Sequence record: DRR723986_599
DNA: 40,669 nucleotides
Reading direction: 5' to 3' (one strand)
Part shown: positions 4,784 to 8,542 of the stretch, piece by piece
Position numbering within the stretch: the stretch's first letter is position 1
Layout of the letters: each line of letters starts with the position of its first letter
Made by a program: the position numbers and the translations under genes
Notes under the pieces: generated by a model
Told to the model about the DNA's origin: nothing
Database searches by the model: none
The model's input: the letters and a program-made list of their open reading frames with translations, nothing else

Positions 4784-5097
4784 GGTGTGGTTCCTTCTCG
4801 TTGGGCGGCTGCCCAGGTGCAGTTGTGTGACTTGGCGATTGCTCGCATTCAACGTGTTGCTAATGCTAGCGATTCAACGCCGCATCTGTTTACCGCTGAT
4901 CTTTCAGATTATGAGCTTTTCGTATTGACGCTCTAGGGCAAAACGGAACACGCTATTAGGGCACGATCGAAGTTCGGGCGAGTGCAGCAGCCAAGTTGAA
5001 CTGCGAATCTCGACTGAAACGACGAGGTCACACAGGACGTGTGGAACTCGTGCAATATGACTATTTGAAGCTAGCAATCGTGGCAAGGAGGCCGTCG

Positions 5098-6660
5098 ATG
5101 TCTACGTCTTTCCCAAGTGGAAACCCTACGGGTGGAAATTCTAACGAATCCTCAAAAAAGGGGGTAAGCCTCCGAGGGATGCTCAAAGAGGCCGTATTCG
5201 TCGGCTCTGAGGACATCGTCGTTACGTCGTGCTGCAATCGAGCCGCCAAGGTCAAACCGGGCGATGTATTTATCCCCGATAGCACATGTGCCGTCGACCA
5301 GCACGAACTTGCTGAAGAAGCGATTCAGCGTGGAGCGGTCGCAGTCGTCAGCGAGCGACTCTTGACGGTCTCCGTACCCCATTGCCTAGTTGAGGACACT
5401 TCTCTGGCCTACGGGCAAGTCTGCCAAGCACTCGTGGGCAATCCGTCAACTCGGATGCTAACCATCGGCGTTGTCGGTACGCATGGGAAAACGCTCGCAG
5501 CGCTGCATGTCTCCGCCATGCTCAAGCGGCTGGGAGGCTCGGTCGCGTACTACACATCCTTGGGGTCCAGCGATTCGACCTTCTGCGATCGCACGGCTAC
5601 GCGTCCCCCAGCGGCACGTAAACTGGCTCATTGGTTGCAAAAGGCCGACCAAGCAGGCGCGCCAGCGGCAGTCATCGAGCTGACTCCAGCCATGTTGAAG
5701 GCTCAAGTTGATGCGGGCGTCGAATTTGACGTACTCATCATCACCGGGCTTCGAAGTGGTCAAGCGTCCGGCTCGGCAAGCAGTCGACAGATGCGTTACC
5801 TAATCCAACGACTGGTCAGTCGAAGCCAAGATCGTTGCAATATCGTCTACAACGCGGACGATGCACTCACCTGCGAGTGGGTGTCGCAGCGCTACCCTGA
5901 CGCGGTCAGCTACGGCATTGACGCTTCTGAGCACGTGCGTGCCAAGCGGCTTTCACGATTCGGCGGCGAGCAGCAGTTGTTGGTGATTGCTGGCAACAAG
6001 CTAATGCCACTTTGCCTTAAGACTCCAGGTGACCATACGGCCCGCGGTGCACTTGCCGCGATCGCGACGGCCTGGTTGTTTGAGTTCAACATTCCCGAAG
6101 CCATCGCCGGTGTAGAAGCGCTCGACAGCATCCCCGGACGATTGCAGAAGCTTCAGCAGGCGGTCGAAGTGCCGCTTTATATCGACGCAGGATCCACGCC
6201 AGACCGATTGGCGGTTGCCTTGCACTCACTGCGAACACATCAACTCGGAACGCCGACAACCGTGGTCGACCTCGATTCACGCCTGGATGTCAAATGGCGT
6301 GCCCGGCTTGGAGAGATCCTTGAAAAGACTGGCGGCAAGGTCGTCTTATGTGGTTCGGACTTGTCGCCCGAGGCTGTTCAAGGGCTGGCGATGGACGTTC
6401 TCGGCGGGTGTAATTCGCCCGGCAAGGTCCAAGTTATTCCTGATCGAAAAGCCGCCATCGAGTGGGCAGTAAACAGTACCACCGAGGGTTGCATCTTGCT
6501 GTCCGGCTGCGGAGCCAAAGTGTGGACTGGACGTGACGGAGAGCCACTGAGCGACGAAGGTGTGGCTCGCGATGCCGTGACACAATTGAATTCCAAAGCG
6601 GCTGTAGCCAAGCTTGGGATTTTTCCTTCTTCCGAGCCGCCTGCGTCCTATTCGCATTGA
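5098..6660 (+). CDS. Divergent Mur-ligase (MurE-like) protein
   Basis: VKPGDVF..AIQRGAVAVV N-domain, P-loop-like GVVGTHGKT, YNADD, IPGRLQ, DRKAAIEWAV, LLSGCG. Start at ATG 5098 with AAGGAGG upstream. Several MurE catalytic motifs are degenerate. Confidence 0.75.
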   Translation: MSTSFPSGNPTGGNSNESSKKGVSLRGMLKEAVFVGSEDIVVTSCCNRAAKVKPGDVFIPDSTCAVDQHELAEEAIQRGAVAVVSERLLTVSVPHCLVEDTSLAYGQVCQALVGNPSTRMLTIGVVGTHGKTLAALHVSAMLKRLGGSVAYYTSLGSSDSTFCDRTATRPPAARKLAHWLQKADQAGAPAAVIELTPAMLKAQVDAGVEFDVLIITGLRSGQASGSASSRQMRYLIQRLVSRSQDRCNIVYNADDALTCEWVSQRYPDAVSYGIDASEHVRAKRLSRFGGEQQLLVIAGNKLMPLCLKTPGDHTARGALAAIATAWLFEFNIPEAIAGVEALDSIPGRLQKLQQAVEVPLYIDAGSTPDRLAVALHSLRTHQLGTPTTVVDLDSRLDVKWRARLGEILEKTGGKVVLCGSDLSPEAVQGLAMDVLGGCNSPGKVQVIPDRKAAIEWAVNSTTEGCILLSGCGAKVWTGRDGEPLSDEGVARDAVTQLNSKAAVAKLGIFPSSEPPASYSH

Positions 6661-6726
6661 CTCGGGTTACCGCGATTGGGTATTCCACAATTATCTCAAG
6701 TCAGAAACGTGGTGAAGCGAGCTGAA

Positions 6727-7071
6727 TGAGCCGCAAACCGCCTGCTGAAACAGCGCTCCTCGATGAGCGCTGGAGAGATGCCAACAAGCAATTCGTGCGG
6801 TTCAGAACCCAGACATCGGCCGTGCGAGTTACTGGTTTAAACAATCAATCAGTGGAAGCCCTGTCGTTGGCTATGGTTTTGCGGGAAAGCATAGCTGGCC
6901 TCCCTCCTGGGTCGGAGCACACATCTGATAAGCTTGGTTTCTGGGTCAACTGGGCTTAACAGCGCTTCGCGACAGGGCTTAGTTCTGCGCACCGGAGCAT
7001 TTCGAATCCGATTTGCTCCGGTGCCAGGGAACAATCGCCCTTGCAGTCCACAGATCTGCAAGGGCGTTTTT
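6727..7071 (+). ncRNA. Candidate structured non-coding RNA, family unrecognised
   Basis: At least eight stems identified by eye (see findings). G-U pairs are compatible only with the + strand. The element ends in an intrinsic terminator and lies in a ~700-nt intergenic gap. Confidence 0.5.
7036..7071 (+). terminator. Rho-independent terminator
   Basis: Stem CGCCCTTGCAG / CTGCAAGGGCG followed by TTTTT. Confidence 0.75.
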
Positions 7072-7363
7072 CGTCTAGGTCTGCCCCCTCGCTGGACAAT
7101 CCCACGCGGCAATTCCCGACCCAGCCCGCCGATTCATTCGCAATAAGCTCCCAGCTCAACCGCCACCGTGTCGCATCTAGCATCTGAGCGGTGAAAAACT
7201 AAGTGTTGGATCTCGTAGCAGCAATCACGCTGAATCCGGCAACCCATCGCCGATCTTCGCCCGAGCCGACGAAGTCACCGGGAGTTTGTGCTATTCTGTT
7301 GCTGCTTACGACGGAAGCCTTCTTTTCAGTCAAACCACGCTTCGAACCCACCTGGAGCTCAAC

Positions 7364-8542
7364 ATGATTCGATCATCCGCGAACTTATCCAACATCAAAC
7401 GCCTGGCAGCCATATGTCGCCAGCCGCTAAGACGGACTGCCTCTGCGGCTGTCTTGGCTGCTCCGCTGGCAACTTTGCCATTGGCAAATTCCAACGCGCA
7501 AGAAAGGCCGCAAGTAATTGCGGTCGAGGTGCAGGAGGTTGCAGAGCCTGAGGCCAAGGAAGACGCAGCGGCCAAAGCAGAGAAGCGAAAGGCGATGCAG
7601 ATTGTCCGTGTGACACAAGCATTCCTCGAAACACTTTCCGACGAACAGAAAGAAAAGGCAACGCTGGAATTCGATGACAAGCAACGCGTCGGTTGGCACT
7701 TCATACCAAAGGATTCTCGCAAGGGCGTGCCCCTGAAGGAGATGGAAGCCGAACAAAAGAAGGCGGCCATGCTTGTGCTACGCGCGGCGGTAAGCAAGCT
7801 GGGATTTGAGAAGTCTACCCAAATCATGAAGCTTGAATCTGTTCTCAAGCAGTTAGAAGGCGACAAGGGACGCAACGAACGCAACCCTGAGAAGTACTAC
7901 TTCACGGTCTTTGGCCAGCCGAAGTTCAAGGCGCGTTGGGGCCTGAGTATCGAGGGGCACCACCTGTCACTGAATTTCGTGTTCAAGGGAAACAAGGTGC
8001 TGGATTCCACGCCACAGTTCTTCGCGACCAACCCAGCGGTCTTGAAAGAAGATTTTGGTGAGGGCTTTCCAAAGGGCCTGCAAGTCTTGAAAGCGGAGGA
8101 GCAACTCGGGTTCAAGCTCGTGCGAAGCCTTGACGAAGCGCAAAAGAAGAAGGCGATGCTGCCGGGCGATACGCCGAGCGAGATTCGGGCCGCAGGCTCA
8201 GTGCAACCTCCAATGGAATCCCTGGGTGGCATTGCCGTTGCTGATCTCAACGAAGAACAACAAGCGACACTGCAGCGATTGTTGAAAGCCTACACAGGCA
8301 AGATGAAGCCGCTTGTTGCCAAGGAGCGGTGGAAGTTGATTGAAGAAGCGGGCATGGACAAAGTTACTTTCGGCTGGTCCGGCGCGACGCGTCCTGGCGT
8401 CGGTCACTACTACGTCATCCAAGGGCCCACGTTCGTGGTTGAATTCATCAACGTTCAACCCGATGCGGCTGGGAACCCAGCCAACCACGTCCACTGTGTC
8501 TGGCGCGATATGGGCGGCGACTTCGACTTGCCGATCAAGTAG
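7364..8542 (+). CDS. DUF3500 family secreted protein
   Basis: Signal-peptide-like N-terminus; WHFIP, YYFTVFG.P, WGLSIEGHHLSLNF, TPQFF..NP, YYVIQGPTFVVEF, NHVHCVWRD..GDF. ATG 7364 has GGAG upstream. Confidence 0.85.
   Translation: MIRSSANLSNIKRLAAICRQPLRRTASAAVLAAPLATLPLANSNAQERPQVIAVEVQEVAEPEAKEDAAAKAEKRKAMQIVRVTQAFLETLSDEQKEKATLEFDDKQRVGWHFIPKDSRKGVPLKEMEAEQKKAAMLVLRAAVSKLGFEKSTQIMKLESVLKQLEGDKGRNERNPEKYYFTVFGQPKFKARWGLSIEGHHLSLNFVFKGNKVLDSTPQFFATNPAVLKEDFGEGFPKGLQVLKAEEQLGFKLVRSLDEAQKKKAMLPGDTPSEIRAAGSVQPPMESLGGIAVADLNEEQQATLQRLLKAYTGKMKPLVAKERWKLIEEAGMDKVTFGWSGATRPGVGHYYVIQGPTFVVEFINVQPDAAGNPANHVHCVWRDMGGDFDLPIK

Follow-up and report, generated by a model that had tools for sequence, protein, structure and literature searches.

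The DNA analysed here is a stretch of 40,669 nucleotides (nt) from sequence record DRR723986_599, referred to below at its full length as the window. On its + strand, between a gene for a MurE-like Mur ligase and a gene of the DUF3500 family, it carries a region (6727-7071, +) for which an earlier note had proposed an undescribed, multi-domain structured RNA of about 345 nt with its own terminator. The Mur ligase gene (4996-6660, +) codes for 554 amino acids (aa) with the Pfam domains Mur_ligase_M and Mur_ligase_C, and no murF-like gene stands between it and the RNA. The DUF3500 gene (7286-8542, +; Pfam DUF3500) is not a conserved partner of the RNA. From 5' to 3', the space between the two genes holds a promoter-like site, a variable leader, an RNA core made of a four-way junction and a long hairpin, and an intrinsic terminator; a 77-aa open reading frame (ORF; 6726-6959, +) that overlaps the RNA is judged not to be a gene. 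Comparison with related genomes assigns 6856-7071 (+) to a family of structured RNAs that had not been catalogued before, a conserved bacterial non-coding RNA (ncRNA) in kind. It may, with modest probability, be more than a new family of a known ncRNA kind. To our knowledge, almost no regulatory RNAs have been described in Planctomycetes.

Extent, fold and strand of the conserved RNA

Every inverted repeat listed earlier for 6727-7071 is present in the sequence, and the 345-nt stretch folds strongly on the + strand (-152.6 kcal/mol, z -6.7; 0 of 100 dinucleotide shuffles were as good), the folding of the - strand being weaker (z -4.0). The folding signal is held by 6854-7072, which comprises the core and the terminator (z -7.8; 0 of 200 shuffles), and the 5' part, 6694-6853, shows mild structure (z -2.8; 1 of 200 shuffles).

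The nearest relative, locus L001 of genome G001, was found through the upstream Mur-like protein, which is 89% identical there, and served as the centre of the genome samples described below. In a pairwise alignment, 6843-7071 is near-identical to L001, above the identity of the flanking coding sequence, and about 40 nt immediately after the Mur stop codon are again conserved. The stretch 6700-6842, which holds a proposed domain A (6727-6804) and the 5' half of the ORF, is poorly conserved, with indels and loss of the ATG. The repeats of domain A and a further hairpin at 6831-6853, both put forward as parts of the RNA, do exist in the window but are poorly conserved and carry indels even in this nearest relative. 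They belong to a leader (6694-6855, +) that lies outside the conserved RNA and is unalignable across 31 loci; since the leader between the promoter-like site and the first stem is not conserved, domain A seems best seen as part of this variable leader. The proposal of a large structured RNA thus held as to real conserved structure and gave way as to extent, the conserved unit being 6856-7071 (+), smaller than the approximately 345 nt first suggested. Just 3' of the terminator, L001 contains a run of N (about 6100-6210 of that locus, or 7110-7235 of the window), and the spacer to its DUF3500 gene is not comparable.

A consensus fold was obtained with RNAalifold from a MAFFT alignment of 31 sequences (the window and 30 relatives) that was not fitted to any model. 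It contains 62 pairs, 42 of which show at least one compensatory double change, against 13-20 in controls whose partners were slid by 1-3 columns; compensatory double changes occur in 319 cells of the alignment. Paired cells amount to 95.4%, compared with 36.9-44.3% in the slid controls. At 0.496, the covariation score exceeds the maximum of 0.130 in those controls, and 500 column shuffles gave no covariation values as high. The covariation among homologs that the earlier note had suggested looking for is therefore present, and strong. The RNA strand is the + strand: pairing drops from 95.4% to 86.3% when the alignment is read as the - strand, and G-U pairs make up 199 of 1918 cells (10.4%), in agreement with the earlier argument from G-U pairs in the stems. 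The minimum-free-energy fold of the single sequence reproduces the same four-way junction.

The junction domain (6856-6980, +), as defined by the consensus fold and the counts for each pair, is formed by stems P1, P2, P2a and P3, the last continued by P3a and P3b. P1 (6856-6867/6969-6980, +) is a closing stem of 12 base pairs (bp) with changes on both sides in 10 of its 12 pairs; the 11-bp stem seen in the window alone (6856-6866/6970-6980) is thus kept, at 11-12 bp, by comparison with the 30 relatives. P2 (6869-6880/6885-6896, +), which takes in the repeat GCTATG/CATAGC (6870-6895), has both-side changes in 9 of 11 pairs and an invariant loop region, UUGCGGGA. P2a (6902-6904/6909-6911, +) is invariant in the family and covaries only in distant members, for example as CCAAC/UUGG or CAUC/GAUG. 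P3 (6914-6918/6964-6968, +) joins GGAGC to GCTTC in all 31 sequences, with G-U alternating with A-U, and takes the place of the pairing TCGGA/TCTGA (6912-6928) proposed from the window, which is not a conserved one. P3a (6924-6931/6956-6963, +; both-side changes in 8 of 8 pairs) and P3b (6933-6939/6948-6954, +; 5 of 7 pairs) together retain the hairpin noted at 6929-6958, and P3b ends in the invariant loop CUGGGUC.

The junction is followed by the long hairpin P4 (6985-7027, +; arms 6985-7001/7012-7027), of the form CUG-GCACCGGAGC...GCUCCGGUGC-CAG, with both-side changes in 10 of 16 pairs and 97.8% of cells paired; it retains the hairpin noted at 6989-7024. A single-stranded linker (7028-7035, +) forms part of a conserved block, CAGGGAACA; its sequence CCAGGGA-CA is invariant or nearly so in the 31 sequences and is not kept in distant members. 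The invariant blocks of the alignment (UUUGCGGGA, CCCUCCCUCCUGGGU, UUUCUGGGUC, GCUUC, CUG.GC and CCAGGGA.CA) alternate with stems that change compensatorily, and are followed by a hairpin of variable sequence and a T-run. Across 49 diverse members, fully invariant columns occur only in two hairpin loops, around UGCGGG and UGGGUC. Two long-range pairings considered by eye were unsupported, one between the invariant CCUCC tract and a GGAG about 45 nt 5' of P1 and the other between the CCAGG of the tail and the CCUGG of P2a, because in both cases the two sides do not vary within the order and, in distant members, show changes that are not compensatory.

The intrinsic terminator (stem 7036-7046/7056-7066, T-run 7067-7071, +) consists of an 11-bp stem followed by TTTTT and is present as the earlier note had described it. 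A terminator-like hairpin with a T-run stands directly after the core in 54 of 98 loci; the control counts were 5 of 99 for the 103 nt 5' of the core and 20 of 98 for the opposite strand. The sequence of the stem varies among loci and the hairpin is kept. A consensus scanner did not list the hairpin at 7036-7071, because its arms lie 9 nt apart and the scanner accepts loops of 3-8 nt. By eye, the hairpin at the position of P4 either bears the U-run itself or is missing in distant members. In L155, L156, L161, L163 and L036, P4 is missing and the 3' strand of P1 runs directly into UUUU(U)A, so that the stem closing the junction would itself be the terminator stem.

Coding potential, known RNA classes and distribution

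Selection on a small protein, encoded by the 77-aa ORF that overlaps the RNA, was weighed against selection on the RNA. The ORF is open in the window, and gene callers predicted 'hypothetical proteins' of 68-80 aa over the core in four metagenome records. These four database matches cover 31-62% of the query, however, and their common part is a run of 20 residues that translates invariant nucleotides, the sequences being fully different on either side. The ORF matches no Pfam family, and in the nearest relative it has lost its ATG and carries indels. The frame that stays open longest across the core differs among 99 loci (frame 0 in 24, frame 1 in 36, frame 2 in 29, no open frame in 10), and the spacing between two invariant blocks falls into all three residues modulo 3 (22, 35 and 39 of 96 loci). 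With neither frame nor start kept, and with the 319 compensatory cells reported above, we regard it as highly improbable that the ORF is the selected unit and the RNA structure incidental.

Comparison with Rfam 15 (4227 models, judged by gathering score) gave no match for the whole window. At E<=10, the region 6500-7400 gave three noise matches only, of 9.6-18.6 bits against gathering scores of 62-104, and 20 diverse member loci gave no match at E<=1; ARAGORN found no gene in 6500-7300. The covariance-model check suggested for novelty thus came out without a match and, together with the covariation, upholds an undescribed + strand RNA with its own terminator. Identity with 6S, SRP, RNase P, tmRNA or tRNA, which the earlier note had already doubted for lack of their hallmarks, was ruled out by these negative results and by separate loci in related genomes. 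In five complete related genomes, RNase P RNA (RF00010) and tmRNA (RF00023) each lie elsewhere in all five, over cut-off; SRP RNA (RF00169) also lies elsewhere in all five, over cut-off in four, and is not found in the window; 6S RNA (RF00013) has matches at places other than the RNA locus in three, one of them over cut-off. The consensus, a four-way junction with a hairpin, is not a 6S-type rod. Full-text literature searches and look-ups in survey papers, with the supplementary motif lists of the surveys outside this scope, returned no description of the RNA.

The distribution was determined in samples of 151 genomes each from the family Pirellulaceae, the order Pirellulales, the class Planctomycetia and the phylum Planctomycetota, the ranks being those of the L001 lineage at NCBI. 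Two covariance models were used, one of the 186-nt core and one of the junction only, the latter built from the 49 diverse sequences. The core model found one match in each of 128 of the 151 family genomes, and matched 127 of the 151 order genomes, two of which also had a partial second match on another contig. A similarity search with 6840-7075 had matched 122 of 301 family genomes, nearly always at a single place per genome. In the phylum-wide sample the core model matched 4 of 151 genomes. The junction model matched 69 of 151 genomes of the class sample and 7 of 151 of the phylum sample; besides the centre genome, five of the other six phylum matches also belong to the class sample. The RNA thus forms a new family with abundant covariation, present once per genome in most Pirellulales genomes searched and in a lower share of Planctomycetia, and is a candidate for inclusion in Rfam.

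Neighbouring genes and transcription signals

Neighbours were counted at 99 non-redundant loci. A co-oriented Mur ligase gene stands directly upstream in 79 of them (68 recognised by ORF clustering and 11 more by tblastn), with a median gap of 71 nt between stop codon and core in the 68 loci from ORF clustering; no Mur gene is upstream in 19, and one locus is too short to judge. This synteny agrees with the earlier suggestion of a 3' element belonging to the Mur-like transcript. Which ligase gene is present varies: one complete genome has the order murE (366 bits), murF-like (104 bits), RNA, and another has murE (279 bits) followed by the RNA. The best NCBIfam match of the window's own ligase is murE (TIGR01085), at 156.4 bits, below the cut-off of 257.3 and beginning at residue 74, whereas the MurE proteins of relatives score 279-404 bits. 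The predicted protein is, from its sequence, a divergent MurE-like paralog or ortholog that carries an N-terminal extension. At the 19 loci without a Mur gene, 10 neighbour genes scanned at 9 loci are unrelated (LRR, FliG, DUF1501, SDR, FHA, a glutamine-synthetase fragment, DUF3500) or are encoded on the other strand, and there the RNA must therefore be transcribed alone.

Downstream, the earlier note had offered a second option, an attenuating leader of the DUF3500 gene. This was ruled out, since a DUF3500 gene follows the RNA at just 6 of 99 loci and, of 85 downstream ORFs, 30 run in the opposite direction. MraY forms the largest downstream cluster, with 13 of 99 loci (one member confirmed at 345 bits against a cut-off of 192), and the SDR family follows the RNA at 9 of 99.

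Among 20 weak class-level matches that were fetched, 13 lie precisely between a Mur ligase gene and mraY. In the class sample, mraY was found in 29 genomes and not found in 40 where the RNA was found, and was found in 18 and not found in 64 where the RNA was not. Wherever RNA and mraY share a contig, the RNA is directly upstream and co-oriented (27 of 27 genomes; gap 163-355 nt, median 273). Placement ahead of a single gene family on the same strand is thus seen throughout the 27 assessable genomes with mraY and is not seen in the family of the window, where the largest downstream cluster accounts for 13 of 99 loci. With the junction model, a search without filters around mraY in 8 of the 18 class genomes that have mraY and no match for the RNA found nothing (best 13.2 bits, E 0.11). 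We conclude from the 27 co-oriented positions directly upstream of mraY that the ancestral home of the RNA was the murF-mraY spacer of the dcw (cell-wall/division) cluster, a defined site within the most conserved bacterial cell-wall gene cluster. Three mraY-linked loci from a different lineage (L155, L156 and L163) carry, within 30-60 nt of the start codon of mraY and 5' of it, CU-rich tracts (CCUCCCCUCCCUCUCC, CCUCCCUCCU) that resemble the invariant CCCUCCCUCCU tract, which in Pirellulaceae lies inside the RNA.

In the family of the window, mraY was over cut-off in 0 of 41 genomes, and a bona fide MraY query gave only weak paralog matches (33-45 bits) in 4 of 5 complete family genomes. MurD, MurG and MurA were each over cut-off in none of five complete Pirellulaceae genomes (G030, G005, G014, G020 and G037); MurE was over cut-off in four of them, and a MurF-like gene also stays beside the RNA. 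The family therefore seems to keep 'orphan' Mur ligases without the remaining lipid II pathway, as far as the genes searched can tell (MurB, MurC and Ddl were not among them). The RNA persists in this setting, in the 128 of 151 family genomes reported above, which bears on what remains of peptidoglycan synthesis in the Pirellula group and on the role of its leftover Mur ligases.

The terminators and the upstream genes are co-oriented with the RNA. Just 5 of 99 loci have a terminator-like site 5' of the RNA, so that transcripts running on from the mur gene would include it. A promoter of its own is suggested by the site TTGACT-N18-TATTCC (6657-6686, +), inferred from its pattern, which overlaps the Mur stop codon and is conserved between the window and L001/L003 while the neighbouring leader is not. 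By eye, TTGAC-N17/18-TAT(T/C)(T/C)C occurs in 7 of 7 loci of the closest clade; in the window and the relatives nearest to it, the site either overlaps the Mur stop codon or comes shortly after it. Its distance from P1 ranges from 16 to 188 nt. A stricter pattern was found in 17 of 99 loci, against 0.3 expected from shuffles, 1 of 99 on the antisense strand and 5 of 98 further upstream; the pattern is suggestive only, because some of the sequences counted had served to define it by eye. A sigma-70 consensus scanner found no promoter. As to expression, 23 public runs each share a small part of the query words; 20 of them, from 14 studies, are RNA libraries on record. In all four metatranscriptome runs examined, from four studies, one short contig covers a relative's core (151-261 nt, depth 2.2-4), a weak hint of expression that carries no transcript ends, strand or level.

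Possible functions and related systems

A function of its own is suggested by the single copy of the RNA in most genomes searched within the order, by its invariant loops, by its retention where mraY and other wall genes were not found, and by its free-standing position in about one fifth of the loci. With slightly less than even confidence, we propose that it is an autonomous ncRNA that arose within the dcw cluster and probably binds protein. It would be transcribed as the tail of the murE-like mRNA, from the promoter-like site at the stop codon of that gene, or both, and transcription would stop at the intrinsic terminator. The product would be a folded RNA of about 220-380 nt acting alone and in trans, most likely bound by a protein whose contact sites may be the two invariant loops, UUGCGGGA and CUGGGUC; such a complex would be a new bacterial ribonucleoprotein. 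The two invariant loops and the one junction offer a concrete target for genetics in planctomycetes that can be cultivated.

Several observations weigh against this proposal. No binding protein or base-pairing target was identified, and the complements of the loops are not enriched in the window: GACCCAGA occurs three times against 1.24 expected, one occurrence being the loop itself, and TTCCCGCAA occurs 16 times with at most one mismatch against 13.4 expected. The promoter pattern is confined to 17 of 99 loci and comes from the same data, the contigs from RNA libraries are shallow and may reflect DNA carry-over, and the 15% of genomes without a match cannot be interpreted as absence, since the completeness of the genomes is unaccounted for. 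The adjacency to a Mur gene in 79 of 99 loci, with its median gap of 71 nt, would also suit a cis-acting 3' untranslated region (3'-UTR) element. Finally, each of the 27 assessable genomes with mraY has the RNA immediately 5' of that gene, and a U-run usually follows the RNA in mraY-linked loci (11 of 13, by eye), which is the anatomy of a cis-acting attenuator or riboswitch.

That anatomy underlies the main rival explanation, which we consider possible, though less probable than an autonomous RNA: an operon-internal attenuator or riboswitch of the dcw cluster whose junction would sense a protein or a metabolite such as a peptidoglycan precursor, and so set the balance between stopping at the U-run and reading through from murE/murF into mraY. 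Besides the invariable position before mraY, with the gap of 163-355 nt, and the 13 of 20 weak class-level matches placed exactly between a Mur ligase gene and mraY, it accounts for the hairpin and U-run, or P1 with an immediate U-run, that precede mraY in the 11 of 13 loci. By analogy, the size, junction architecture and invariant loop nucleotides are also reminiscent of riboswitch aptamers. In the mraY-less Pirellulaceae, the RNA would then be a leftover or a co-opted regulated 3' end. Control of mraY cannot explain why the RNA is retained in 128 of 151 genomes of a family with mraY over cut-off in 0 of 41; what follows the RNA in that family is a set of unrelated genes, 30 of 85 of them oppositely oriented. 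Moreover, a Mur gene is upstream without mraY downstream in 66 of 99 loci, whereas no locus was seen with the RNA and mraY but without an upstream Mur gene, and a brief look by eye revealed no conserved antiterminator alternative. With MurA, MurD and MurG not over cut-off in the five complete Pirellulaceae genomes, a peptidoglycan-precursor ligand would be missing there. The attenuator and the autonomous RNA are not mutually exclusive, because an ancestral cis element may have become trans-acting. A more specific proposal, which we hold to be rather doubtful, is that the junction is a sensor of a metabolite of the peptidoglycan pathway (for example UDP-MurNAc-pentapeptide or a MurE/MurF substrate) or of a pathway protein, tuning transcription from murE/murF into mraY by means of the U-run, and that in Pirellulaceae the RNA has been retained as a free-standing regulator tied to the orphan ligases. 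If true, it would be a new riboswitch class and the first RNA sensor of a late peptidoglycan precursor.

We also regard as rather doubtful a cis-acting 3'-UTR element of the murE/murF mRNA that serves the stability or processing of the message and has no separate role. The co-oriented ligase gene, the short median gap and the scarcity of terminator-like sites between gene and RNA (5 of 99 loci) all accord with it; P1 begins within about 5 nt of the stop codon in some lineages, and on break-up of the cluster the RNA stays with the mur genes and not with mraY. It does not explain the 19 of 99 loci without an upstream Mur gene, several of which have an upstream gene on the opposite strand, and invariant loops on a four-way junction far exceed the needs of a protective 3' hairpin. 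The RNA core also surpasses the mur gene itself in conservation, with nucleotide identity near 70% against about 25-32% identity between the Mur proteins. Titration of CsrA by a Csr/Rsm-like sponge, with GGA motifs in the P2 loop, the linker and the leader hairpins, is improbable in our view. GGA is kept within the order in the P2 loop (GCGGGAA) and in CAGGGAACA, leader hairpins of the closest clade have GGA loops (GAC-AGGAU-GUC, ACGGAG), and the five complete related genomes (G030, G005, G014, G020 and G037) each contain 7-12 genes of the CsrA family. Yet conservation extends to just two GGA sites, no GGA occurs in the most invariant loop (CUGGGUC), the P2 loop reads GCGGGGU in some members, the window itself is without the GACAGGAUGUC hairpin, and Csr/Rsm RNAs are not known to be built on a conserved multi-helix junction.

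Comparison with known systems places the RNA between several classes. Small RNAs released from 3'-UTRs, such as CpxQ, DapZ, SroC and MicL, likewise lie at the 3' end of a gene and have a terminator common to both, and a putative internal promoter overlaps the end of the coding sequence here. Such RNAs are short, have little structure and act through a linear seed with Hfq, whereas the conserved structure of the present RNA extends over about 215 nt and includes 62 pairs that covary or are invariant, and neither seed nor target was found for it in the window. Four-way-junction terminator riboswitches of the SAM-I type share the long P1 followed by a hairpin and U-run, matched here by the position upstream of mraY in 27 of 27 genomes; they differ in that the RNA is 3' of a gene at most loci, is retained in genomes where the gene it would regulate was not found, and matches no Rfam riboswitch. 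The mraW motif, which sits upstream of mraW at the start of the dcw cluster, is likewise a structured RNA candidate tied to cell-wall and division genes. It is listed for Actinomycetales (PMC2864571). Lineage and position both differ from those of the present RNA, and the Rfam entry of the motif, RF01746, gave no match here. The raiA motif RNA is described as a widespread structured class of unknown function (PMC10861870). With it, and with OLE, ROOL and GOLLD, the present RNA has in common its restriction to a lineage, multi-helix junctions, invariant loop or junction nucleotides, its own terminator and uninformative neighbours; it is set apart by the missing Rfam match, by its occurrence in the class Planctomycetia and by the fixed ancestral murF-mraY site in the dcw cluster. 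The Rhodopirellula-1 motif is tabulated for 'Proteobacteria, Planctomycetes' with RNA status '?' and no Rfam accession (PMC2864571, Weinberg et al. 2010); by this table description alone, being also proteobacterial and of doubtful RNA status, it is a poor fit, though it may be identical with the present RNA. CsrB and CsrC sequester CsrA (PMC4682653), and the present RNA resembles CsrB/RsmZ in having GGA both in the loop of a hairpin and in an unpaired segment ahead of the terminator, in relatives where CsrA genes are abundant. It departs from them in having just two conserved GGA sites, and in a core that is a junction with a GGA-free invariant loop.

Some further features were noted around the core and in the related genomes. 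All of the CsrA-family genes (PF02599) in G030, G005, G014, G020 and G037 are over the Pfam cut-off (e.g. G014:C1:3181516-3181671). CsrA is usually encoded by one copy per genome, and 7-12 copies represent a large expansion; we know of no CsrA antagonist RNA in the group of these five genomes. In loci L003-L008, small hairpins of the leader show GGA in their loops (GAC-AGGAU-GUC, and CGUUC-ACGGAG-GAACG or similar), about 10-25 and about 45 nt 5' of P1, and are similar to CsrA sites; the window has a 12-nt gap at about 6840, so that the first of these hairpins is missing. Finally, short tandem repeats follow the terminator in two loci, as TTGTTACTTGTTAC... in L024, about 40-100 nt 3' of the core, and as GGGGTTCTGG-like units in L008, about 45-80 nt 3' of the core.

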